Shown: in pieces, positions 41,747 to 64,000 of the stretch
How the letters are laid out: the number at the start of each line of letters is the position of its first letter
Position numbering within the stretch: the stretch's first letter is position 1
IMG/VR virus record: IMGVR_UViG_3300025530_000275
Span: 1 to 64,000 of that record
Length of the DNA stretch: 64,000 nt
Source: a virus
Strand: one strand, 5' to 3'
The notes under the pieces: model-generated
Databases searched by the model: none
Seen by the model: only the letters and a program-made list of their open reading frames with translations
What the model was told of the DNA's origin: nothing
Program-made: the position numbers and the translations under genes

Positions 41747-42742
41747 TTATTTTTCTTCATCTTCAGAAGTTATTTTAATAGCAGAATGAATTAGCCTCAC
41801 ATATGCATTATAGCAAGATTCGGCTACTCCCATTCTGGCTGAATTTATTGAATACACTATTCGATTATATTGCTCCCTGGCATTAACCATATTTTTTGTA
41901 ATTTGATTGGGGTCTTTGCCCTCTTCGCGTTTATCGGGTTTATTAGGATCATCAGATCCAGAAGGTTGCTCTTGTTTATCCACTGTATTAGACGTTACCG
42001 GACCATCTTGTTCAAGCAACATATTGACAGTATCCAGAAATTCATTACTTTCTCTAAATACTGCTGATCTTATTTTTCTTATAGAGTTATTTAAAAATTC
42101 GATAATTTTATTATTTCTAGTATTTATACTTCTGGCAAGTTCCGCATAACTTTCAACATATTTAACCATGTTAGGATATTGTTCCAGGAACATCTTCTTA
42201 TTCATTACAACTTTTTTAGTCCCACCCTGGAATACTGCCTTAGGGTTAAATTCTGTTTTACCATCTTCAGTTATATAGAGATCTTTAAAATATTTCTGCT
42301 TGAATGATTCAACATCCTTAAGCTCTTCCAGAAATTCAGGAGTTTCCCTAAACTCTGGAAATCTATAATTCCTTAGTTTATCTTCGCCCCTCCAATAAGG
42401 ATAAACTTCGGCTTTGAAATTATCTGGGACTTTATCCCCAATGGCAGATTTTGCTTTAACTTTTGCCAACCAAGCTTTATTTTTTGTAATAAGTTTATTT
42501 GCAAGAGTTATGAATTTGCGGGATAGAGCTGTAATTGCGGCAATCAATTTCTTTAATGCTTCTATAAGAATATTTTTATTATTCTCAGTAGCTTCAGTTA
42601 TAAATAAGTGATCCGAAAAGTTTTCTTTTAAGTATACATTATTGAATAAATTTTCAGTTTCTCGTATAATTTCTCTTGTAATTTCAGAGAAATTTTCTAT
42701 GCCATATGAATTATCTGAATGGGTAATAATTATCTCGCTCAT
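41747..42742 (-). CDS. Putative internal head protein (paralogue family)
   Basis: ITEA site followed by amphipathic LKKLIAAI..KFI..NK helix. Confidence 0.65.
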   Translation of the reverse strand: MSEIIITHSDNSYGIENFSEITREIIRETENLFNNVYLKENFSDHLFITEATENNKNILIEALKKLIAAITALSRKFITLANKLITKNKAWLAKVKAKSAIGDKVPDNFKAEVYPYWRGEDKLRNYRFPEFRETPEFLEELKDVESFKQKYFKDLYITEDGKTEFNPKAVFQGGTKKVVMNKKMFLEQYPNMVKYVESYAELARSINTRNNKIIEFLNNSIRKIRSAVFRESNEFLDTVNMLLEQDGPVTSNTVDKQEQPSGSDDPNKPDKREEGKDPNQITKNMVNAREQYNRIVYSINSARMGVAESCYNAYVRLIHSAIKITSEDEEK

Positions 42743-42743
42743 A

Positions 42744-42884
42744 TCAGGACGCCCTCTCTTCTTTATTAGATCTTATAATACGAACCGGTTCAGGTTCTAT
42801 TGCAGTAATATTTAAATTATGAAGAGGTGCTATAATTAAAAGTGTACTAATAATGGAGATACTTCTGATCAATCTTTGCGTCAT
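42744..42884 (-). CDS. 46-aa small ORF with signal-peptide-like N-terminus (below the track cutoff)
   Basis: GGGGGA RBS; MTQRLIRSISIISTLLIIAPLHNLNITAIEPEPVRIIRSNKEERAS; fills the gap and abuts the next ATG. Confidence 0.6.
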   Translation of the reverse strand: MTQRLIRSISIISTLLIIAPLHNLNITAIEPEPVRIIRSNKEERAS

Positions 42885-42899
42885 TCAAATTCCCCCATA

Positions 42900-43775
42900 T
42901 TACGCTGTACTGGAAATAAATCTCACTTCGTCAACGGGAATTTCTGTAGGGGAATCATAAAACTTACTTCTAGCTCTATGTGTGCAGCAGAAATATTTAC
43001 CATTTTTGGCATTCTTAAAGAAACTACATTCAACTTTTCCATATTTCTCTTTAACTGCTTCTCTTTCAGATGGCGTTAAGCTAACTTTTTCGATAGTGCC
43101 TTCAAAAAGAAATGATTGACTTTCCTGGATTTGTATTCTATTTAGAATACCCTTTTTGAGCATTTTATATTCATTAGTAGATTCAATAAAAAAGTCTTTT
43201 ATTCTTGTCACATTTTTAAAGATATCGTCCGGGATGTAGTTTTCATTAACCACATTTTCATTTTCATTAGAGTCTGGAATAAATTCTTCATGGTCTCTTT
43301 CAGCAGTTCCTTTATAAACCCCATAATACGTAGGGGTTGTTTTCAGATCCAACATTTTAATTGCCCCAAATCTATGGTTTCCATCTGTAAGGATTGCTTT
43401 TCCTTTAGATTGCCAGTTGAAACCATGTATCTTATTTACCACTATAAGTGGAGTTATATTACCTTTTTCCTCAATAGATTTTGCAATATCGAATACTTTT
43501 TTCATATTAAGAGGCTTATTAAAGGATTCAATTTTATCGACACTTAATTCCTTTTCTTTCCAATCATAGTTATTTACAAATTTAATACAGGATTTAACTG
43601 CCTTAATTTTCTTTTCAGGTGTGTTATATTCATGACTGCTAGAAAACCCGTAAGCGATAGCTTTCTTTATCTCATCGTCCCCGAAAGCTTCTTCGAACGC
43701 TTTAATCTTTCCATCTTTATCGGGGAGATAATATTCGTTAGGCATTGAGGCTTCTCTTAATAAATCGGTGAACAT
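42900..43775 (-). CDS. ParB/sulfiredoxin-like domain protein plus small C-terminal domain
   Basis: SIEEKGNITPLIV...ILTDGNHRFGAIKML; leader MFTDLLREAS. Confidence 0.7.
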   Translation of the reverse strand: MFTDLLREASMPNEYYLPDKDGKIKAFEEAFGDDEIKKAIAYGFSSSHEYNTPEKKIKAVKSCIKFVNNYDWKEKELSVDKIESFNKPLNMKKVFDIAKSIEEKGNITPLIVVNKIHGFNWQSKGKAILTDGNHRFGAIKMLDLKTTPTYYGVYKGTAERDHEEFIPDSNENENVVNENYIPDDIFKNVTRIKDFFIESTNEYKMLKKGILNRIQIQESQSFLFEGTIEKVSLTPSEREAVKEKYGKVECSFFKNAKNGKYFCCTHRARSKFYDSPTEIPVDEVRFISSTA

Positions 43776-43829
43776 ATGACTTAACCATCCTTTCTTAATT
43801 GTAAATTATTTCTTAATATTTTTACCGTG

Positions 43830-44783
43830 TTAAACTACTAAACTTATAATCTTTTTCAATATTTCAGTTTCCATATTGTATTTATCTTTAAGTGCATCTA
43901 ATTTCTCTTTAAATACCACAGAATATGATTCCATTATTTGAGATATAAATGAAACAATCAGTGCCTGGTATTCTTTATGTCTATTTGCAGTTGCAATATC
44001 TACCACAACTTTTTCCCCTTTATCACTCTTCAAAGATGCCCCAAGAGAATCAACATCAAATTTAACGTTTATCACATTCAATGCAATTTTTACATATTTA
44101 TCATATTCTCTTAGAATATTATCTCTATCAGCTTCAATCATTTTCTTAACATCTTTATATTTTATAAAGTCATCAATCATTCTATTAAGGTCTCTCTTGG
44201 TAAGTTCTTTTACAAATACTTCATCGGAACCCCTGAATATGGATTTAATTCTGGAAGCGAATTCATATTGAGGTACCTTCTCAGAGACTCCTATTATTTT
44301 TCCTCTAATCAGATCCAATTGTTCGGTGTAAATATATTTAAAATTTTCAATATCTGCCGTAGTTATCTTTAATTTGGAAAGATTTGTTATGGATTTCTGA
44401 ATTATATTAAAATAACCATATGACGGCACATTTTTAGGAAAGTTAAATTCCTTATATTCATATACGATATTTTTCAAATCCTCATCGGTTAAATTTTTAA
44501 TGAACCCTGAGTATTTATTCAAAATATACTCGATATAATCAGTTTTCTTCATAAATAAAGAAATAAATTTTTCATACAAATACTTTATAAATTTCACTAT
44601 CTTTTGAGCTACGATATTTATAGCATCAATAAATGCTGATTCGTTGACGATGTTTGAACTTTCAATCATGTAGCTATTTATGATAGATTGGGTCTCAAAT
44701 GCGGATTCTAAAATTTCAGTAATCTCATCAGAAATATTCTCTTTAATAGACTCCTCGATTATGGCATCCGAAAATAATCTCAT
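43830..44783 (-). CDS. Putative internal head protein (paralogue family)
   Basis: IEES, ILES, MIES and VNES sites followed by an amphipathic helix. Confidence 0.65.
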   Translation of the reverse strand: MRLFSDAIIEESIKENISDEITEILESAFETQSIINSYMIESSNIVNESAFIDAINIVAQKIVKFIKYLYEKFISLFMKKTDYIEYILNKYSGFIKNLTDEDLKNIVYEYKEFNFPKNVPSYGYFNIIQKSITNLSKLKITTADIENFKYIYTEQLDLIRGKIIGVSEKVPQYEFASRIKSIFRGSDEVFVKELTKRDLNRMIDDFIKYKDVKKMIEADRDNILREYDKYVKIALNVINVKFDVDSLGASLKSDKGEKVVVDIATANRHKEYQALIVSFISQIMESYSVVFKEKLDALKDKYNMETEILKKIISLVV

Positions 44784-44918
44784 TTTTTATATCCCTACCC
44801 TCAATTTGTTATATAGACATTTATTTAACGTTGTTTTTAATTTATAAGTATTATTCGTAATTGTGAAGGAAAAAAATAATATTAATTGTAGGTTTACTTA
44901 TGTAAAATAAAAACAAAA

Positions 44919-44947
44919 CGCGAGTAGTTCCGTAAGGAACTACTCGC
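44919..44947 (-). terminator. Intrinsic terminator
   Basis: CGAGTAGTTCC-gtaa-GGAACTACTCG plus T-run. Confidence 0.85.
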
Positions 44948-44968
44948 TCGAATGAGGGGAGATGTGAA

Positions 44969-46111
44969 TCAGAATACGAAACCGTTTGCGCTTTCACCGA
45001 TTTGGTCTTCGTCGTCATCTTCCACATCTTCAATATTTTCAAAGAGCGGATCGAACGGAATCACAGCAGCGCTTTCATTTACCGGCTTCTTGTAGCGAGC
45101 AGCGTACATACAGAATGCACGAGCTTCGCTCAGTTGACGTTTCAGAGTGTTCAGCTTCAGGCTGAGCAGCTCAGCGAACACATCAGCAATTGCCGAAGTT
45201 CTCTTGCGAAGGTAGTTGAGATATGCGATCTTGCCGGATGCGAATTTGGCATTGGCGCCATCACCACCGGAACCTTCCTTCTTCGCATACTGAGCTTTTT
45301 GGGAGAGATAATCAACAAGCTTTTTAAATTCGCCTTTGGTCTTCTCCATAATGCTCTTGATATTGCCAGCATTGGCCGAATAATTTTCGATGACTTTGAA
45401 ATAGTCCATAGAGAATGTTTTCGTGGTCTTCTTTCCGCCGCCCAGGAGAGCGAGGCGCAGAGCATCTTTGTACTTGCCCCAATCTTTGGTTTCCGAGATG
45501 TTCACACGAGTCAAGCGGTTTGCAATATCGATCTTCTCAAAGTCGATAGCAGCACGCTTATCTTCGTTGTACTTCTGAACAATTTGGTCCAGTTTGTCTT
45601 TGTTCTGAGCATTGTACTCGGTGCGTGCTTCTGCTTCAATGTCGCTGAGGACAGTTTTCACATTGTCGATGTTGATCACGTCCGGCTTGTAGTCGTATGA
45701 CGTCATCGTAATCTTCGCCATATCCTGAGCCGACAGATTCTTCTTCTCAACTTCCGGCTTGATTTTCTCGATGAACTTCTTGTTGCTTGTCAACAGAGTG
45801 GCGATGAAGTTGACAGCCGAATCAACTATTTTCACAATCCACTCCCACAGACGCTTCAGAGCGGCGACAATCTTGTTGCCGACATGATCGTTTGCTTGTT
45901 CGAGGACCATGATGACGTTGTCATCAACAGAACCTGCACTTTCTTGCAGGGCCTCCGTCATCAGTCCGCGATACGACTGGATGAGAGTGTCGATTGTGGA
46001 ATCCGCCTCGCCAAGATATGCGGAGAACTCTTGCGCATCGAACGCAGAGCTCAATTGCAGTTGAGGTGCGGACTGTGTCGAACCTTCAAAAAGATCCTTG
46101 AACATTTGCAT
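44969..46111 (-). CDS. Putative abundant internal head protein
   Basis: Strong codon bias; AAGGAGG RBS; own late motif (46145-46156) and terminator; LFEG, LQES and VNES sites. Confidence 0.75.
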   Translation of the reverse strand: MQMFKDLFEGSTQSAPQLQLSSAFDAQEFSAYLGEADSTIDTLIQSYRGLMTEALQESAGSVDDNVIMVLEQANDHVGNKIVAALKRLWEWIVKIVDSAVNFIATLLTSNKKFIEKIKPEVEKKNLSAQDMAKITMTSYDYKPDVINIDNVKTVLSDIEAEARTEYNAQNKDKLDQIVQKYNEDKRAAIDFEKIDIANRLTRVNISETKDWGKYKDALRLALLGGGKKTTKTFSMDYFKVIENYSANAGNIKSIMEKTKGEFKKLVDYLSQKAQYAKKEGSGGDGANAKFASGKIAYLNYLRKRTSAIADVFAELLSLKLNTLKRQLSEARAFCMYAARYKKPVNESAAVIPFDPLFENIEDVEDDDEDQIGESANGFVF

Positions 46112-46193
46112 TTCCTCCTTAATATTGTTTGGAATGATTTTCCTTATACCTATGTTACAAGGAAACTGTGGATAGTATTACAATTGGATGTTA

Positions 46194-47288
46194 TTAATTA
46201 TCTTGATTATTTAAAAGAATTATCCAGTGTCCATTTAGTAATTCAGAATGTTTTTCCAGAATCTTTTCATTATTATGAGGGTTGATAATACCCTCCTTAC
46301 TTTCATGATCTTCAGAAATTGTTTCATATCCTCCAATAATGACTTTTCTATAATTGATGCACATTTGTTCGAACAGAGCCAGTTTCATCTTAATAATATC
46401 TTCTATAATTTCAAGACATTTTGTAATCAGATTACATTTGATAACCAAGGCGTTTGTATATACGCTATCCAAATATACATTAGTGTATTTATTAGAAATT
46501 TCTACTTTAAAGGAATTAGCTTCAAATATTTCTTTTTGTATCAAATTAATTATTTTATCAATAGGTTTAGTATCAATGTAGGATTCCCTGAGAGTTCTGA
46601 ATATCTCATCTCCAATTCTTTTAATTTGGAGGTTATTTTCTTTAACAAGGGAATTTTTGATAACTTCTTTTATATTTAAAATATTATAAGAATTCGGCAC
46701 TCCTAATGCAACTCGTTTCAATGTTTCTTCATACTCATGAGAATTATTTTCATATCTATTGACTATGCCGATCATAGCCTCGGGCGAAACACTATTATTT
46801 CCATAAATATTAAAACCAATTTTATTGAAGATATAGTCAATTACTCTATTATAAACGTCATCCGGCTCCAAGTTATCCAGAGTATATTCAGGAATTTGAT
46901 AACTCCATTTATGTCTGTCAAGGCGTTTCAGAAGAGGTTCATAAATTTCAATGACCTCTTTATTGACGTTCTTCAGGAAGTCCATTTCTTCCATAATAAT
47001 ATTTTTATAGATAATCAGAACGTCTATGCTAGATTCATATGTTTTAACTATATCGTCTAAGGTTTCGACACAATGTGCCTTCAGATCAGATTGCACATAT
47101 TCATTGTATACATAATTTGATTCGCGCAAGGAATTTTCTATAGTAGAATTATATTTTTCCATAGATTTACCAAACTCTATGCCAGATTCAGAGAGAAGTG
47201 AATTGAAATAATTTTTATTTTTTTGAATATTAATGGCTAATGTATCCCTTTTCATAGTCTTTCTCTCTAAAGTGAACAAAATAATCAT
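46194..47288 (-). CDS. Putative internal head protein (diverged paralogue)
   Basis: LSES and LRES sites; NKEVIEIY..YQIPEY; late motif 47306-47317. Confidence 0.6.
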   Translation of the reverse strand: MIILFTLERKTMKRDTLAINIQKNKNYFNSLLSESGIEFGKSMEKYNSTIENSLRESNYVYNEYVQSDLKAHCVETLDDIVKTYESSIDVLIIYKNIIMEEMDFLKNVNKEVIEIYEPLLKRLDRHKWSYQIPEYTLDNLEPDDVYNRVIDYIFNKIGFNIYGNNSVSPEAMIGIVNRYENNSHEYEETLKRVALGVPNSYNILNIKEVIKNSLVKENNLQIKRIGDEIFRTLRESYIDTKPIDKIINLIQKEIFEANSFKVEISNKYTNVYLDSVYTNALVIKCNLITKCLEIIEDIIKMKLALFEQMCINYRKVIIGGYETISEDHESKEGIINPHNNEKILEKHSELLNGHWIILLNNQDN

Positions 47289-47355
47289 CCTCCAGTATTA
47301 ATTATTATAAAACTGTTTTTCAAATGAAAAAAGGATACTCTTTTATGAGCATCCT

Positions 47356-48528
47356 TTAATGTATGATTCCATCATCATTATCCTCATACCAGAAGACATT
47401 ATCGTTATAATGAAGATCGTCCGGCTGTTCAAATACCCAACTCAGATTATCAATTTCGCTTTTTAGATGTATAAATACTTCAGCGTGCATTGTCGCAAAA
47501 ACTTGTATTATTGACATCTGATATTCAATCAGTTTTACTATCTTACCCAAGGCGGAATTTAGATTTTCAATTGTTTTTCTATCCAAAGAAGAATCCATAG
47601 ATCTATTTGTATTTATATCAAATTGTAATCTATTTATATGCGTTTGAAATTCTTTCTGTACATTATCAAGGGATTCGGGTAACGTCTTTTGTATCCATTT
47701 CGCAAAAACTTCACATTCATAATCTATCTTCTCAAGTTTTCTTGTAAGCTCTAATAAAAAAGTTGTAGTTACTTCTTTGGTTATTACATCACCATACAAT
47801 TTTTTAAATACCTGCTTCTTATCATATTCTACAGATAAAGATTTTTTAAATATTTTATCAAAAAAGTTTTTCTTTTGAAGTAGTTCATCTGTTGATATTA
47901 TTTCTTCATGCTTGGATGGATCATTTTTTAGCCGATCTATATAATCAGATATGGTTTTATATACCTTCATAAATCCTTCTTCAAAGAAGTTCTCCCTTTT
48001 AAATATGTGCTCAAATAATGTCACTTCATGCCTTTCTGGTATATATTCTATGGCCCCCGAATCTCGCCTATAAAACTCTTCATCATCAACGGGTTCATGT
48101 GATGGTTCGGGTTCAGGCGGAATATCTTTTACCTTAGTTTCAGTATTAACTCTTTTAACTTCTTTAGGTTTATTATAGGATGGTGCCTTTCTACCACTTT
48201 CAACTTTTTTAGCAGCAGTCCTTGCATCGCGGACTGTCTGTTTTGTCCCCTTTCTAATCCCAGAAAATTTACTAGCTATAAATCTAACAAATTGCATTAT
48301 TTTATCCCTAAGCCATCTTAATACTCTTTTAATAGTTTCAAGTAAAGATCTTTTTGTATTATTCATACTAACTTCCATTATATAGTTAATATCAGAAGTT
48401 AAAGAACTTGAAAGCATAGTGGTAAAATCTATATAGGAGTGCTCATATAGTGGAGAGAAATCCTGTGACTGTATATCTTGAAGCGAATATCCCTCCTTAA
48501 TAAAACGAAGTTTCTTTTGTATGTCCAT
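47356..48528 (-). CDS. Putative internal head protein
   Basis: Leader MDIQKKLRFIKEGYSL; LLETIKRVLRWLRDKIMQF helix. Confidence 0.65.
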   Translation of the reverse strand: MDIQKKLRFIKEGYSLQDIQSQDFSPLYEHSYIDFTTMLSSSLTSDINYIMEVSMNNTKRSLLETIKRVLRWLRDKIMQFVRFIASKFSGIRKGTKQTVRDARTAAKKVESGRKAPSYNKPKEVKRVNTETKVKDIPPEPEPSHEPVDDEEFYRRDSGAIEYIPERHEVTLFEHIFKRENFFEEGFMKVYKTISDYIDRLKNDPSKHEEIISTDELLQKKNFFDKIFKKSLSVEYDKKQVFKKLYGDVITKEVTTTFLLELTRKLEKIDYECEVFAKWIQKTLPESLDNVQKEFQTHINRLQFDINTNRSMDSSLDRKTIENLNSALGKIVKLIEYQMSIIQVFATMHAEVFIHLKSEIDNLSWVFEQPDDLHYNDNVFWYEDNDDGIIH

Positions 48529-48569
48529 ATATTAAACTCCTTTGAAAATAAATATCAAACTGAAGCTTT

Positions 48570-48812
48570 TTACTGCAAACCTTTAGCCCTGAGTTCATAA
48601 ATACGTTCCTCTAACCTGTCAATTTTCTCTAAACATCTTTTTTTCTCCATAGGATCTTTTGCTACAAGAGCTCTTGTTTTTTCAGCATCCAGTTCCTTTT
48701 TGAGTCTATATAATTCTTCAAACTCCTCTTTAGATAGTGCCATTTCTTCAATATATACATTTTCATAAGTTCCTTCCAAGATACTTTTAAGCTTTTCTTT
48801 AATAGAGCTCAT
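48570..48812 (-). CDS. Small helical protein with KLKSILEG leader
   Basis: GAGGTGAG RBS; 80 aa. Confidence 0.7.
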   Translation of the reverse strand: MSSIKEKLKSILEGTYENVYIEEMALSKEEFEELYRLKKELDAEKTRALVAKDPMEKKRCLEKIDRLEERIYELRAKGLQ

Positions 48813-48863
48813 TACATTCTCACCTCATTTATTTCTTATATAAATGTCTCAAATCAAAAGAAA

Positions 48864-48894
48864 ACTGAGAGCCAAATTTTTTATGGCTCTCAGT
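48864..48894 (-). terminator. Intrinsic terminator
   Basis: ACTGAGAGCCA/TGGCTCTCAGT plus T-run. Confidence 0.75.
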
Positions 48895-48918
48895 CATTTT
48901 TATTAATTTATACACACA

Positions 48919-49368
48919 TCAAAATTTCCCATTAAGATATTTTACAACTTCATCAAGAGTTTTACACCATTTTGCACCATTAGATTGAACCATCATACCT
49001 ACTGAATTTAAAGAGCTTATTTGGTGATCATTAAATTTTAATTCTTTACCTTTAACATTATCAGTTAATAAATAGCAAAAAATTGTTTTATTAGGACGTT
49101 TGTTACTATCGTCAACTACTTCAGCTATGCTATAAACACCAGACATGGCTGGTGTTATTACATAAAGAAGATAGTCTGCAATGGATCTCATTTCAATTTC
49201 TTTTTGTTTGCATTCATCTGTCCAATTATCTACTATAGGATTGAAGTAATCTATTTTGAGTTCAGGTATAATTTTGTCTCTCCAAGTAGAACCATTGGCT
49301 GTTCCACCAAGAAAAACCAGCTTCTTCCTACCTGAGATCTTTTCAAAAATATCTGTAAACATGATCAA
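48919..49368 (-). CDS. Nucleoside 2-deoxyribosyltransferase-like protein
   Basis: VFLGGT..STWR..YFNP.V.NW...ADYLLYVIT..GVYSIAEV. Confidence 0.75.
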   Translation of the reverse strand: MIMFTDIFEKISGRKKLVFLGGTANGSTWRDKIIPELKIDYFNPIVDNWTDECKQKEIEMRSIADYLLYVITPAMSGVYSIAEVVDDSNKRPNKTIFCYLLTDNVKGKELKFNDHQISSLNSVGMMVQSNGAKWCKTLDEVVKYLNGKF

Positions 49369-50360
49369 AATAACATAATGTCTTCTGGGGTTAATTTAAC
49401 TTTAGATTCAATTTCAGCTTGCTTCTCACCTTTTTCATAGGTGAATGCAAACTTGTCTGATAGTTTGGTAAGCTTATCAGCAAACCATTTTTGGATTTTA
49501 TACGTTCTACTATCTTTACTTACGCCTTTATTTCTCAAGGCCTCAAGATTGCCATTAATCAAATTTGCCTGAATTGCAAACGCTTCGCTTAATTGCAATC
49601 TTGTATAATAGAAGAGATAAATCAGTTCTTTTACGATAGGAATAAATTTGAGGAGGGCAATGATACCAAAAATAATGAGTCCGGTCGTCAACGCTACGGA
49701 CTCGCTGATAGGACGCGCATTTTGTTTCATATAAAGCTGCATTGCTTTGTCGAACGTTCCGTTTTCTACTTGTTCATTAAAGCGTTTCAGAGCATCGATC
49801 ATAAGATAACTATTGTGTCTTCTATATTTATTATTAATAATGATATCCACATTTTCGGTAGTTTTAGACTGATCTCCACTGAGGCCTGCATTGATAAAGT
49901 CCACAAGAACTGAGATCATCAACGAAGTAGCGCAATATACGGCCATTGTGAGAAGATTGTACGTCATTATAATAGGGGAATTCTTCCGAACAAACCCTGT
50001 ATAGAAAGTATCCTCATATTTGATGATATTATCTACTGCTTTCGAGATAATACCAATTTCAGGGATGTTTTGTTTCGAGTCTTTTGCAATATTAGACAGA
50101 AGTTCCAAAGATGATACGAGGTTGTCATACTCCCTCATATTTCTGATTTTACCCATTGACTTTGGAATCATTTCGAAGTTTATAGACTTATAGCGCTCCG
50201 CAATGATTATATAGATTTGGTCAATGAGTCCTTTGCTTATTGAGACTTTATCAGCCTCAGTAAGAGTCATATATTTGTGCATAGTAAGAGAACCAGAGTA
50301 ATTCTCTTTAATCAACGAGTATAGATCGAGTTCCTCTCTTGTGAGATGCATTATATTCAC
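49365..50360 (-). CDS. Hypothetical virion protein with hydrophobic segments
   Basis: LTEA and ISES sites; VALTTGLIIFGIIALLKFIPIV. Confidence 0.7.
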   Translation of the reverse strand: MNIMHLTREELDLYSLIKENYSGSLTMHKYMTLTEADKVSISKGLIDQIYIIIAERYKSINFEMIPKSMGKIRNMREYDNLVSSLELLSNIAKDSKQNIPEIGIISKAVDNIIKYEDTFYTGFVRKNSPIIMTYNLLTMAVYCATSLMISVLVDFINAGLSGDQSKTTENVDIIINNKYRRHNSYLMIDALKRFNEQVENGTFDKAMQLYMKQNARPISESVALTTGLIIFGIIALLKFIPIVKELIYLFYYTRLQLSEAFAIQANLINGNLEALRNKGVSKDSRTYKIQKWFADKLTKLSDKFAFTYEKGEKQAEIESKVKLTPEDIMLF

Positions 50361-50365
50361 CCCTC

Positions 50366-51484
50366 TTAGACACGTCCCATTGCGCGAATCATCTCACGCA
50401 ACGTTTTGTCTTGGTTGTTTGCTTCTCGTTCCAGTGTCCTATATGGATATTCTTGAAAATCCGGATAGGCATCAAACATCACGTATGCGATTTCATTTGT
50501 TTGGTCTAGAATTGTAAATCCTAAGAGATAGTATTGATTCATAATTTTTCTAGCTTCCTTGAATACATCAACGTCATATTGGTTTTTCAGAATATTGACC
50601 TCATTCATAGTCAATACAATGGTACCAATAGGTTTATAATTATCTGCTACTGTGCCCCATGCAAGCTTTGCAAGGCGCCGTCTGCGTTTAAATGCATCGA
50701 GCCATGGAGACTTAGTTCTGTTTAACAAGTCCTCTTTAATATTCGAAATTCCAAAAAGAAAATCAATCAAGGACTTTTGTTCACCAGAAATATATTTAAC
50801 GAAATTTAAAAATCCTTTACTTTGATGTATGCTTCCTACAATATCCTTTACTAATACTTGAGTAGGCACTTTATGCATAACTGCTTTAATATGAACAGGA
50901 ATTTCTACAGTTGTATCCTTTACATTCAAAGGAATGATAACCGTAGTAGGAAGAACTTCATTTGCCTTTTTCCATTCATGGTCAACAGTAGCAGTTGCCG
51001 ATTGAGAAGCTGCCTTTTTCTTTTGAGCATGAATGTCAGCCTTTTCTACAGAAACTTTTGATCTCAAATTTTCTACAAATTCTTTAGCTGCATTATTTTC
51101 ATTTAAAATACCATAATTAATTCTCTCGGAAGCCGCTTCTAATTTAATACTAACTGAGCCGATATTGGCCGGTACACCAATATTCTGATGCACTTTAGAG
51201 AGATGTTCCTTGATGCCATACTCACTGTTTGACATATCCACAAAGGGAATGAGGGAAAATGCAGTTCTCGTGAATACAGCATAGTTCCTTTCAAACATCT
51301 TCATCAACATCATGAGTTCATCAGATGTAAGCTGCTCCGAGCAGGCAATAGGGAAAAAGTACGTAGATTCCGTGGATGCTTGTGATAGAGACTTAAACCT
51401 TTGCGTAAGAGTAATCTTCTTTGTCTTCAAAATGTTATCTTTAATAATTTTCCTACCGAGCATAATGATATCCTCGATAAACAT
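50366..51484 (-). CDS. Hypothetical protein, late and probably structural
   Basis: 372 aa; GGAGGGAG RBS; late motif 51525-51536. Confidence 0.7.
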   Translation of the reverse strand: MFIEDIIMLGRKIIKDNILKTKKITLTQRFKSLSQASTESTYFFPIACSEQLTSDELMMLMKMFERNYAVFTRTAFSLIPFVDMSNSEYGIKEHLSKVHQNIGVPANIGSVSIKLEAASERINYGILNENNAAKEFVENLRSKVSVEKADIHAQKKKAASQSATATVDHEWKKANEVLPTTVIIPLNVKDTTVEIPVHIKAVMHKVPTQVLVKDIVGSIHQSKGFLNFVKYISGEQKSLIDFLFGISNIKEDLLNRTKSPWLDAFKRRRRLAKLAWGTVADNYKPIGTIVLTMNEVNILKNQYDVDVFKEARKIMNQYYLLGFTILDQTNEIAYVMFDAYPDFQEYPYRTLEREANNQDKTLREMIRAMGRV

Positions 51485-56453: not shown

Positions 56454-58724
56454 ATGTTCGATTTTTCAGAATTCGCGTTGCAAGATAGCATTGCGAACTA
56501 TAATCGGAAAATGATGCTTGAGTCAGAAAAAGCTGCAATTCAATCTCGTAAACGTCTGATCGAGAGTATTGTCGACACATTGGTCCATGAGTATGATAGG
56601 ACCTACAATACGGAAGCATCTAGAGTTATTGATAGAAAGTTCATCAGGGAAGGTGCGGTGATTCATATTGTCAAGGAAGCTGTTTATAGTATCTTCGAAT
56701 CCGCACTTCTTATTGATGAATCTGTAAAGGCTCAGTATAAAGATAATATTAAGATGATTTTCGAAAATTATTTCTACCAAATTCTTAAAGAGAGTAATAT
56801 TAAAACGCTTTCTCAATTTAAGCAATATGTAAAAAATTCGCACAAACTGTTTGAGAATGTTATCGAGCGCGCAGAGAAACTCGTTGAAATCAATGAAAGT
56901 GTGTATAATGAACTGCTTGAAACCACGTATAATAGCACGTCTCTGGATAATCTTATCATAGAGGCTGCTAATGCGGCAGCAGATCCTGAGACCCCTATTG
57001 ATGATAAAGTTGCCAAAGCGCGGGCAATGGTTGATAAGCTCAGTGAAGACTTTAGAAGATTTACTCTTGAACAGCGATTTGCCTCGGCGCATAAATTGAT
57101 TCAGGCTGCCATCATTATTCTCAAACTCGGCGTAGCGTTTGATAAGATATGGTACTCTCTTCTTGATAAACTCCTCTCCGTTGTCAACACTATATTTGGA
57201 CGAGAGTCTACCGAAAGCTTAAAAGAGAAATTGATGCGTAAGACGCTAAAAGAAGTTGATAATTACTATTATGTGGCAATCGACGTTGCAATTACTCTCA
57301 AGAAGCTGCAAAAGAAATTCCCTCCGGATTCTAAAGATTATATCAAGCTCGGAGATAGGATTGCTTCTATTTATAAGGCAATTGTAATAATAAACGATTA
57401 TCGACAAGAACTTATTGCTAAGTCTCAAAACAAGCCTCTTAAAGAAATGACTATCGCTGAGTTCATCACGGAATCTGATTCTGTTATTATGGATACATCT
57501 GCTAGGGATACTGTAATTGATGGGATTAAAGAAAAGCTTAATTCTACGATTGCAGATTTCGATCCATACGATGCATTAGAAAATCTTCAGCTTGTAAATA
57601 AAATCGTAGCAGAACCTCTTTATCAGCAAACATTTGTAACCCAAGGAAATTCGGGCTCGAATGTTGTCCTTGTTATTATCAAGGCACTGAAAACTCCTAA
57701 TATTCCTGATAAACTGAAAGCTCAATTTATTAAAGAAGCAAGAACTTTCAAACACAACTTGGACTCTGTGATTGAAACTGCTCGTAAGAGTGGTCGACAT
57801 GAACAAGTTCCTAGTTTGGTTAAACAAAGTAAGCGCCTCGAATCTTTCTTAGATCAATATGAAAAGAAAGGATACTTTGATACCAAGTTGGTTAGAGAAA
57901 GTATTTCCCCTCTTCTTTCCATTGACCATAAAGTTGGAATGGATGTGCTTGCATCTAATATCGCTGAAGCTACACAGTTCATTCTTCTCTACGAAACTAC
58001 TCCTGGAGATCTTGAATACATCACGCAAATGGTGAATGAAGCCGACGACCATGATCCTGATACGAAAGAGGATCTGAAAAATCTTTCTAAAATTATTAAA
58101 GAAGAAATTGATGACGATTCTGCGTCCGAGGATCTCTTAAAGGAAAGCTTGAAGCTGGAATCTGCCATTTATGAGAAACTTTACATGAATAGACCTGAAG
58201 GAATTTCTGAGGCTGCTGGCAATGAACTCAAGAAAGGGAAATATCCTAAGTTTGAGGACTTTATTGATGCTGACGAGAAAGAACTCATTGCGCACATCGT
58301 ATCAGCATCTGGTAAAGATAAAGTTGTTGATATTATTAAAGCTAAAATTATTAATGTGATTGAAAATGAGGAGAAAAAGATGGAAAAACTTGAGGAAGAA
58401 GAGCATAAGCTAATCTCAAGACTTTCTAAAAGATCTCCTGAAGGGGAAAAAGAGCTTCAAGAAGCTGTTAGGGCTGGTCTTGGCAGAATCAATGTCCCGA
58501 GAACTCTCTTTGAGTCGATTGTAATGAATCGTTCTAAAAAATATATTCAGGAAGCAGTTTCTCTTGGAACTGGTTTTGATATTGATATGCATAAAGAAAC
58601 TATTATGGGCGAAGCGATTACACTGTATACAATTCATGAAACTTTTAATACCCTTTATTTCGGAGGGTACAACCTCTCTAAGATCAATAAACTTACGGTT
58701 GATTACTATAATGGAAAAATTTGA
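56454..58724 (+). CDS. Large helical virion (head) protein, probably proteolytically processed
   Basis: Many hydrophobic-x-E-S/A sites (MLES, LIES, INES, IIEA, ITES, VRES, ISEA, LQEA, IQEA). Confidence 0.65.
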   Translation: MFDFSEFALQDSIANYNRKMMLESEKAAIQSRKRLIESIVDTLVHEYDRTYNTEASRVIDRKFIREGAVIHIVKEAVYSIFESALLIDESVKAQYKDNIKMIFENYFYQILKESNIKTLSQFKQYVKNSHKLFENVIERAEKLVEINESVYNELLETTYNSTSLDNLIIEAANAAADPETPIDDKVAKARAMVDKLSEDFRRFTLEQRFASAHKLIQAAIIILKLGVAFDKIWYSLLDKLLSVVNTIFGRESTESLKEKLMRKTLKEVDNYYYVAIDVAITLKKLQKKFPPDSKDYIKLGDRIASIYKAIVIINDYRQELIAKSQNKPLKEMTIAEFITESDSVIMDTSARDTVIDGIKEKLNSTIADFDPYDALENLQLVNKIVAEPLYQQTFVTQGNSGSNVVLVIIKALKTPNIPDKLKAQFIKEARTFKHNLDSVIETARKSGRHEQVPSLVKQSKRLESFLDQYEKKGYFDTKLVRESISPLLSIDHKVGMDVLASNIAEATQFILLYETTPGDLEYITQMVNEADDHDPDTKEDLKNLSKIIKEEIDDDSASEDLLKESLKLESAIYEKLYMNRPEGISEAAGNELKKGKYPKFEDFIDADEKELIAHIVSASGKDKVVDIIKAKIINVIENEEKKMEKLEEEEHKLISRLSKRSPEGEKELQEAVRAGLGRINVPRTLFESIVMNRSKKYIQEAVSLGTGFDIDMHKETIMGEAITLYTIHETFNTLYFGGYNLSKINKLTVDYYNGKI

Positions 58725-63925: not shown

Positions 63926-64000
63926 ATGAACCTGGCAGAAAAGCTTAAGCTTATACAGGAAGGTTATTCATTAGAAGATATTAATTCCGGTAGTATTAGT
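63926..64000 (+). CDS. Partial ORF MNLAEKLKLIQEGYSLEDINSGSIS...
   Basis: AGGAGG RBS; leader closely matches that of 47356-48528. Confidence 0.75.
   Translation, partial: MNLAEKLKLIQEGYSLEDINSGSIS

Follow-up and report, generated by a model that had tools for sequence, protein, structure and literature searches.

The first 64 kb (the window) of the 206,953-bp virus record IMGVR_UViG_3300025530_000275 (34% G+C) carry an array of genes whose products share short N-terminal leader peptides of two sequence classes, here called A and B. Both leader classes are real, class B overwhelmingly so, and on balance we favour the view that they work like the capsid-targeting sequences of phage T4 and the leader of phiKZ gp93, by analogy with which the carrier proteins would be targeted to the head, cleaved, packaged and ejected. 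We infer from the sequence that the window holds part of the head-interior gene module of an uncultivated jumbo phage related to AR9. An initial annotation, made from the letters of the window alone, had read the array as a probable system for loading diverse cargo proteins into the virion and had quoted seven N-termini, all of which are present (minus strand of 41747-49368, plus 63926). Proteins are named below by the first coordinate of their gene.

Two classes of conserved leader

A simple genome-wide gene call gave 198 open reading frames (ORFs), which were scanned for the leader motifs. The strict class B pattern, L-[KRQ]-x-[ILM]-x-E-G, has 10 matches in the six-frame translation of the whole 206,953-bp genome; nine of these fall within the first 16 residues of ORFs with a Shine-Dalgarno site, the chance expectation being ~0.7 matches over the whole proteome. 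The tenth match is internal (residue 223 of the 3074-residue homologue of the AR9 tape-measure protein, genome 164532-173756, minus strand) and is probably due to chance, or else could be a processing site. Queries of IMG/VR with a single sequence and with a capsid alignment returned the same seven related viral contigs (capsid protein identity 62-85%), of which the three complete ones, G001, G002 and G003, were analysed whole and encode 16, 9 and 6 class B proteins, respectively. When the 40 class B leaders from the four genomes were aligned on their glutamate, the E-G pair was invariant (40/40), an I/L/M-x-E-G site was present in 40/40, and the glutamate stood at position 12 in 22 cases and at position 13 in 13, i.e. 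at one or the other in 35 of the 40 leaders. Their consensus, M-[DSN]-[IVL]-x-x-[KR]-L-[KRQ]-[LMF]-I-x-E-G, describes a basic amphipathic helix of 12-13 residues that ends at the glutamate and is followed by glycine. Because many synonymous codons are used for the conserved Leu, Ile, Gly and Arg residues, it is the peptide itself that is under selection, and an explanation of the leader at the level of RNA or DNA was rejected.

The class B carriers in which the leader continues as E-G-Y-S-L-x-D-I are referred to as the EGYS family. A profile search with this family against 1.84 billion proteins recovered 61 cluster representatives, ~45 of which keep the leader, and a scan of the first 150 kb of AR9 found neither motif nor leader of class B. 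In G001 (243152-244151, L048), three tandem genes of ~108 residues each encode a class B leader followed by I-L-N-E-[SG]-D-V, a local expansion with no counterpart in the window's genome.

The class A consensus is MF-x-[DN]-h-h-x-E (h, hydrophobic) followed by a small residue, and its glutamate sites read LLRE↓A and LFE↓G (arrows mark the putative cleavage bond throughout). The pattern F[TKS]D[ILA][ILF].?E has four N-terminal matches against ~0.1 expected, and two internal ones. As this pattern had been fitted to the window's genome, a looser form was tested in the three relatives only, where nine N-terminal matches were found against 1.3 expected. On these counts class A is weaker than class B, but replicated. 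Both classes into which the initial annotation had grouped the N-termini are therefore real. MFD is also the start, in all four genomes, of a 756-residue late protein (window 56454-58724, plus strand) and of the tail sheath (genome 104537-106321, minus strand).

Portability of the leaders

In hhalign comparisons of the class B families (EGYS, 149854, 99969 and the protein encoded at the scaffold position beside the capsid gene), only residues 1-14 up to 1-24 could be aligned, and the cargo bodies fall into about ten groups by BLAST. One single body family has some members with a class B leader and others with an MF start. In the relatives, an HExxH zincin protease with AR9 g051 as its homologue has a class B leader too. 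After its leader this protease (L036:8303-9574 in G001, with orthologues in G002 and G003) has a second conserved site, h-x-E↓[AS]-Y-[YF]-G, with which the start of AR9 g051 coincides; the zincin gene is absent from the window's genome.

The NDT-like enzyme 48919 (35.6 bits against PF15891, cut-off 30) has 6342 homologues in all. The 120 best-scoring of these all carry PF15891 and most start MKKVFLGG, only 14 of the 120, the window protein included, having an MF extension of 12-17 residues; judged from this comparison, the extension is a clade-specific addition. Among the NDT-like homologues of other phages (P0027-P0134), other additions were observed, namely amphipathic stretches ending LLKE or ILLE and a Cys-rich, zinc-ribbon-like N-terminal segment, and there are hints that the enzyme may have been tagged independently in other lineages.

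The ParB-like protein 42900 contains a DGNHR motif and has weak ParB-like matches in PHROG (E 0.003-0.01); it gave no Pfam match at E 0.01, and its homologue P0003 has a precomputed match to PF02195. Its C-terminal domain matches AR9 g113 (47% identity, E 2e-13), the product of a small gene adjoining the AR9 protease gene, and its class A leader is conserved in G002, G003 and metagenome homologues. Five of its 13 homologues (P0002 and P0005-P0008 among them) sit behind a P-loop kinase as a fusion. The kinase has an MF-x-D-h-h-x-E start of its own and the junction to the ParB-like part keeps G-M-F-G-D-L-L-R-E-A. In such in-frame fusions of a 'uridine kinase'-like with a ParB-like protein, seen in several relatives (G001 245204-246706, L048, among them), ribosome-binding-like codons stand just before the junction leader; with both features there, internal initiation or cleavage of a polyprotein is possible at this junction.

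Taken together, the leader-only alignments, the NDT-like extension, the swapping of leader types within one body family and the kinase/ParB-like junction show that the leaders are portable modules, and the central point of the initial annotation, a modular tag carried by many proteins, therefore holds. Its description of the carriers as unrelated stands in part: the class B families do align in the leader only, but four class B proteins (47356, 63926, 64817 and 181433) are paralogous in their first ~110 residues, and the families of 44969 and 46194 are clear tandem paralogues (hhalign probability 94%, E 1.2e-7, 283 columns), with 43830 as a probable third judging by its profile (49% over 245 columns against the 44969 family, 38% against the 46194 family). 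These four class B proteins and the three tandem proteins of the class A region are what would speak for mere common descent of duplicates, or chance, with a functionless peptide as the cause of the shared N-termini. Such an explanation is highly improbable in our view, given that the leader is common to families with no other detectable similarity, that the NDT-like enzyme gained it as a clade-specific extension, that paralogues of one body family bear different leader types and that the motifs are enriched far above chance.

Head context of the carriers

The class B protein 114989 (215 residues, very acidic after its leader) is encoded directly upstream of the major capsid gene (genome 113245-114891, minus strand; L004:4245-5891), and this scaffold-position arrangement, leader included, is found in all eight genomes, i.e. 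the window's and those of the seven relatives. The G+C-rich capsid gene has an open antisense frame of 558 residues (genome 113212-114888, plus strand), and longest-ORF calling takes the wrong strand here. Divergent from the capsid/scaffold-position block lies a gene for an S77 protease (genome 116471-117352, plus strand), which scores 27.6 bits against Pfam PF03420 (Peptidase_S77, the family of T4 gp21; cut-off 27) and has a homologue in AR9, g114 ('prohead core scaffold protein and protease', E 7e-17); a phmmer search with it against PDB sequences gave no match.

A conserved Y-Y-I-V-E↓A-A site is present at the N-terminus of the protease. In the capsid protein two sites, L-R-E↓D and E-L-L-T-E↓S, are conserved and precede the conserved body; E-L-L-T-E↓S lies near residue 97. 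The capsid sequence QFE↓G, also considered as a maturation site, was rejected as it is not conserved. Since the sites in leaders, protease and capsid protein agree, the specificity is likely of the T4 type, with hydrophobic-x-Glu before the cut and a small residue after it. Of 54 cluster proteins, 36 have an h-x-E triplet within residues 3-16, the share elsewhere being 29% (Fisher p = 5e-8).

The proteins 52079, 50366 and 49365 are homologues of the AR9 virion proteins g213, g214 and g215, in conserved order; 50366 matches AR9 182107-183270 by tblastn (E 8e-22) and PHROG 23804, a virion structural protein (E 8e-21). The AR9-type late promoter motif AACA-N6-TA was found 35-55 nt upstream of 50366 (at ~52 nt), 46194, 44969, 99969, 181433 and 115650, and the other genes of the cluster lie downstream of late-motif genes in the same orientation, the start codon of the NDT-like gene (48919..49362) abutting the stop codon of the gene upstream. 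The AR9 early motif, TATATTAT, stands upstream of 28 genes, mainly of replication and transcription (e.g. 77476-81288 and 124009-126096), and in the whole-genome scan TATATTAT was found upstream of no leader gene. As the two gene sets barely overlap, both promoter classes of AR9 appear to be conserved in this distant relative.

It is at this point that a function outside the capsid has to be weighed, in which the leader would act as a membrane or other subcellular localisation signal, as a stability or degradation signal, or through a shared non-structural partner. Basic amphipathic helices such as the class B leader can bind membranes, the carriers 148785 and 149854 lie among replication genes without a late motif, and the tail sheath starts with MF-D too. 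The scaffold-position protein, however, has the leader in all genomes, the invariant E-G suits a cut site and would be unneeded for a membrane helix, and the main cluster is late and adjoins homologues of virion proteins, so that we consider a non-capsid function very unlikely.

The split multisubunit RNA polymerase genes of the phage are ~30% identical to those of Bacillus phage AR9/PBS1, Staphylococcus jumbo phages and Yersinia phage phiR1-37. The Gram-positive host implied by the initial annotation is a guess. A nucleotide search of deposited phage records gave no nucleotide-level match to the region, tblastn of the 99969 protein against phage records matched nothing, and a single-protein locus search of viral contigs with 49365-50351 recovered nothing.

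Tandem proteins possibly akin to phiKZ internal head proteins

The body of 44969 appears to resemble the phiKZ-like internal head proteins in several comparisons. Its neighbours in the ESM Atlas belong to clusters in which 10-29% of members carry PF12699 (phiKZ-like internal head protein), two of 12 aligned members of its family match PF12699 (best E 1.6e-5), and its homologue P0141 (49% identity) has a precomputed match to the same family. An AF2 model (pLDDT 78, pTM 0.75) shows residues 1-20 as disordered, a helix at 24-55 and long helices later. Conserved h-x-E sites are found at E33 and E55, the second within a nearly invariant L-Q-E55↓S56 that lies in the loop after helix 24-55. Foldseek searches of BFVD with the model returned matches of probability 1.0 (TM 0.26-0.51) to AR9 and phiKZ-like virion proteins. 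Among them were, from AR9, a virion protein of 268 residues (g096 by length) and a syntenic protein of 296 residues (g217 by length) and, from phiKZ-like phages, virion or internal head proteins. Foldseek against PDB gave nothing significant; its weak top rows, the ClyA-family alpha pore-forming toxins MakA, AhlC and XaxB (E 0.04-0.3), were set aside as helical-bundle noise. Though not significant, these rows offer a lead towards a possible insertion of ejected head proteins into membranes. The best match to a solved structure was the phiKZ capsid chain 8y6v_G (Z 10.2, 239 residues aligned), a score that helical proteins can reach by chance.

A common layout was found for the 44969 and EGYS families, consisting of the leader, ~45-55 residues with conserved h-x-E↓S sites, an amphipathic helix and a variable helical body. 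The leader of the EGYS protein 47356 is predicted as a helix at residues 3-11; behind it come a conserved h-x-E↓S site as well as an amphipathic Trp helix. The AF2 model of this protein was poor overall (pLDDT 44) and was dropped as a query for structure searches. When the carrier families were compared by hhalign with eight virion or neighbouring proteins of AR9, one weak match only was obtained, between the 99969 family and g153 (27%).

Comparison with T4, phiKZ and AR9

A removable N-terminal peptide on head proteins is already known in principle: T4 has one, and phiKZ, 201phi2-1 and SPN3US have longer propeptides. The capsid-targeting sequence of T4 was reportedly described by Mullaney and Black in 1996. 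Such sequences stand on the T4 internal proteins IPI-III and on Alt and are removed by the prohead protease gp21 (PMC9026906, PMC5694885). They are 10-19 residues long, replacement of Glu by Asp blocks cutting and not targeting, and the first 10 residues of IPIII suffice for targeting and allow foreign proteins to be loaded (PMC9026906); the leader is printed as MKTYQEFIAE (PMC8442874). The present phage is like T4 in having a short N-terminal peptide that ends in hydrophobic-x-Glu on otherwise dissimilar proteins, in encoding a protease of the gp21/S77 family, in the gene order protease, acidic scaffold-position gene, capsid gene, and in cargo sets that vary between related phages, all with the tag. 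It differs in having two leader classes, KL[KR]xIxE↓G and MFxDhhxE, where T4 has MKTYQEFIAE. The carriers differ too and include proteins like the phiKZ internal proteins (phiKZ-IP-like), an NDT-like enzyme, a ParB-like protein, a P-loop kinase and a zincin protease.

Of the phiKZ-like internal head proteins (PF12699; the gp93 family), which are processed by protease gp175 (PMC11297242, PMC5694885), gp93 is cut between Glu13 and Ser14, its residues 14-84 bind the inner capsid surface and its helix-rich domain presumably becomes part of the inner body (PMC11297242). Like phiKZ, the present phage is a jumbo phage with a virion RNA polymerase and has helix-rich paralogues that stand in tandem and have strongly diverged. 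The layout of the EGYS and 44969 families mirrors that of gp93, which loses a 13-residue leader after Glu13 and is cut again further downstream. SPN3US gp53 and gp54 likewise have an identical 15-residue N-terminus on diverged bodies. The phiKZ and SPN3US motif is, however, S/A/G-x-E, and most of their propeptides exceed 100 residues, whereas the leaders described here have a hydrophobic P3 residue as in T4, a strict length and non-paralogous carriers as well; moreover, sequence membership in PF12699 extends to some members of the 44969 family only. Long propeptides are known in phiKZ, 201phi2-1 and SPN3US (PMC5694885, PMC7411985, PMC10052503), and for giant phages mostly long propeptides and no confirmed scaffold protein have been reported (PMC5694885).

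AR9/PBS1 are the closest cultured relatives. They have in common with this phage the g213-g215 synteny, the protease, the g113 domain and, upstream of the capsid gene, an acidic protein; a short h-h-x-E stretch likewise opens several of the AR9 virion proteins. In our literature search no cleavage-site data for AR9 were found, nor any description of such leaders in AR9-type phages. New are both consensus sequences and the strict length of the leaders, the finding of leaders on several enzymes as well as on the scaffold-position protein, and the exchange of one leader type for the other in a single protein family.

Proposed mechanism and alternatives

We propose that during prohead assembly the leader would dock a late protein either on the scaffolding core or on the inner shell, and that a serine protease of T4 gp21 type would then cut after the leader glutamate, so that the mature protein is set free within the head. 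The scaffold-position protein has the same leader. The phiKZ-IP-like paralogues would have a propeptide of ~55-65 residues with several cut sites, the leader being the first. Our confidence is a little higher for cleavage after the class B glutamate than for this reading as a whole, and lower for the leader as the sole address of its carriers.

The leaders might instead be protease-removed propeptides without an address function, the targeting information lying elsewhere in the protein; until closure of the head they could prevent activity or assembly of the proteins, or they might simply stand before an arm that binds the capsid, as in phiKZ gp93. This would fit the EGYS and 44969 families, with their further h-x-E↓S sites and a conserved segment between the leader and the helix-rich body, and in gp93 it is residues 14-84, and not the 13 removed, that bind the capsid shell (PMC11297242). 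In T4, by contrast, the first 10 residues alone suffice for targeting (PMC9026906). The leader also occurs on proteins without such an arm (80 and 76 residues, and the zincin protease in relatives), and because these small proteins and enzymes carry it an autonomous tag fits better; we regard the pure propeptide as unlikely. A bolder extension of the targeting reading, two-tag programmable sorting, would make classes A and B interchangeable labels for different places or fates in the head, the tagged enzymes (NDT-like, ParB-like nuclease, P-loop kinase, zincin protease) being injected along with the DNA as anti-defence effectors of the first minutes; this is distinctly unlikely as it stands, and any anti-defence role of the carriers is speculation.

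Several observations weigh against capsid targeting as proposed here. The class A pattern is a post hoc one. An MF start alone is no head signal, since the tail sheath also starts with MF, and location in the head needs no leader, since 42 head proteins of SPN3US are uncleaved (PMC10052503). The class B genes 63926, 148785 and 149854 have neither promoter motif, 148785 and 149854 lying among replication genes. For 44969 itself, the window protein reaches only 8.3 bits against PF12699 (threshold 27), and its structural match scores are within the range that helical bundles reach by chance. Several NDT-like leaders lack the glutamate and have Asp or no acidic residue instead, and cleavage of this leader is doubtful because the residue is not conserved among orthologues; such leaders could be explained by the T4 Asp variant, which targets uncut. 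The capsid-loading interpretation of the initial annotation is partly supported, namely by the modularity of the leaders, the h-x-E sites, the S77 protease, the scaffold position, the late context and the apparent likeness of the body to the phiKZ type, and is weakened for the NDT-like enzyme by the unconserved glutamate of its leaders.

Genes of the array

The genes are listed in Table 1; PHROG and Pfam searches left most of the carriers without a name. The 44969 gene has a higher G+C content than its neighbours. The leader of the 80-residue protein 48570 is kept in its G001 orthologue, and 41747, which gave only 23% against the 44969 family by hhalign, has E↓SY-type sites that are kept in its orthologues.

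Table 1 Genes of the leader array and class B carriers elsewhere in the genome (window and genome coordinates coincide)
Coordinates	Strand	Product	Leader	Basis or remark
50366..51484	-	First gene of late operon; homologue of AR9 g214 minor virion structural protein		tblastn, PHROG, promoter motif
49365..50351	-	AR9 g215 virion protein homologue		tblastn E 2e-9; PHROG 23545, E 6.5e-15
48919..49362	-	NDT-like enzyme (PF15891)	Class A-type extension MFTDIFEK, about 49342-49362	
48570..48812	-	80-aa protein	Class B, residues 1-13, nt 48774-48812	
47356..48528	-	390-aa EGYS paralogue	Class B, residues 1-12, nt 48493-48528	
46194..47279	-	Diverged 44969 paralogue	Starts MFTLE	hhalign; own late promoter motif
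44969..46105	-	phiKZ-internal-head-protein-like helical protein	Class A, MFKDLFE↓G, nt 46085-46105	Own late promoter motif
43830..44783	-	Probable further 44969 paralogue	Starts MRLFSDAIIEE↓S	hhalign
42900..43775	-	ParB/Srx-like protein (DGNHR motif)	Class A, MFTDLLRE↓A, nt 43752-43775	
41747..42742	-	Last array gene, possibly remote paralogue	Without class A or class B leader	hhalign
63926..64000	+	290-aa EGYS paralogue, start	Class B	Gene continues to genome 64798, beyond window end
64817-65785		Second EGYS copy, downstream of 63926	Class B	
99969-100490			Class B	
114989-115636		Scaffold-position protein	Class B	
148785-149015			Class B	
149854-150510			Class B	
181433-182575		EGYS paralogue	Class B	

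Implications

The pattern in this clade is opposite to that published for giant phages: a short, strictly spaced tag of T4 style with a clear consensus, present also on the scaffold-position protein. If the targeting reading is true, it would link the head assembly of T4 with that of the phiKZ type, and would give a rule by which the head-interior and ejected proteome of uncultured jumbo phages could be predicted by sequence alone. It would also provide a small tag with which foreign proteins could be loaded into such capsids. The tagged enzymes provide a concrete set of candidates for injected effectors.

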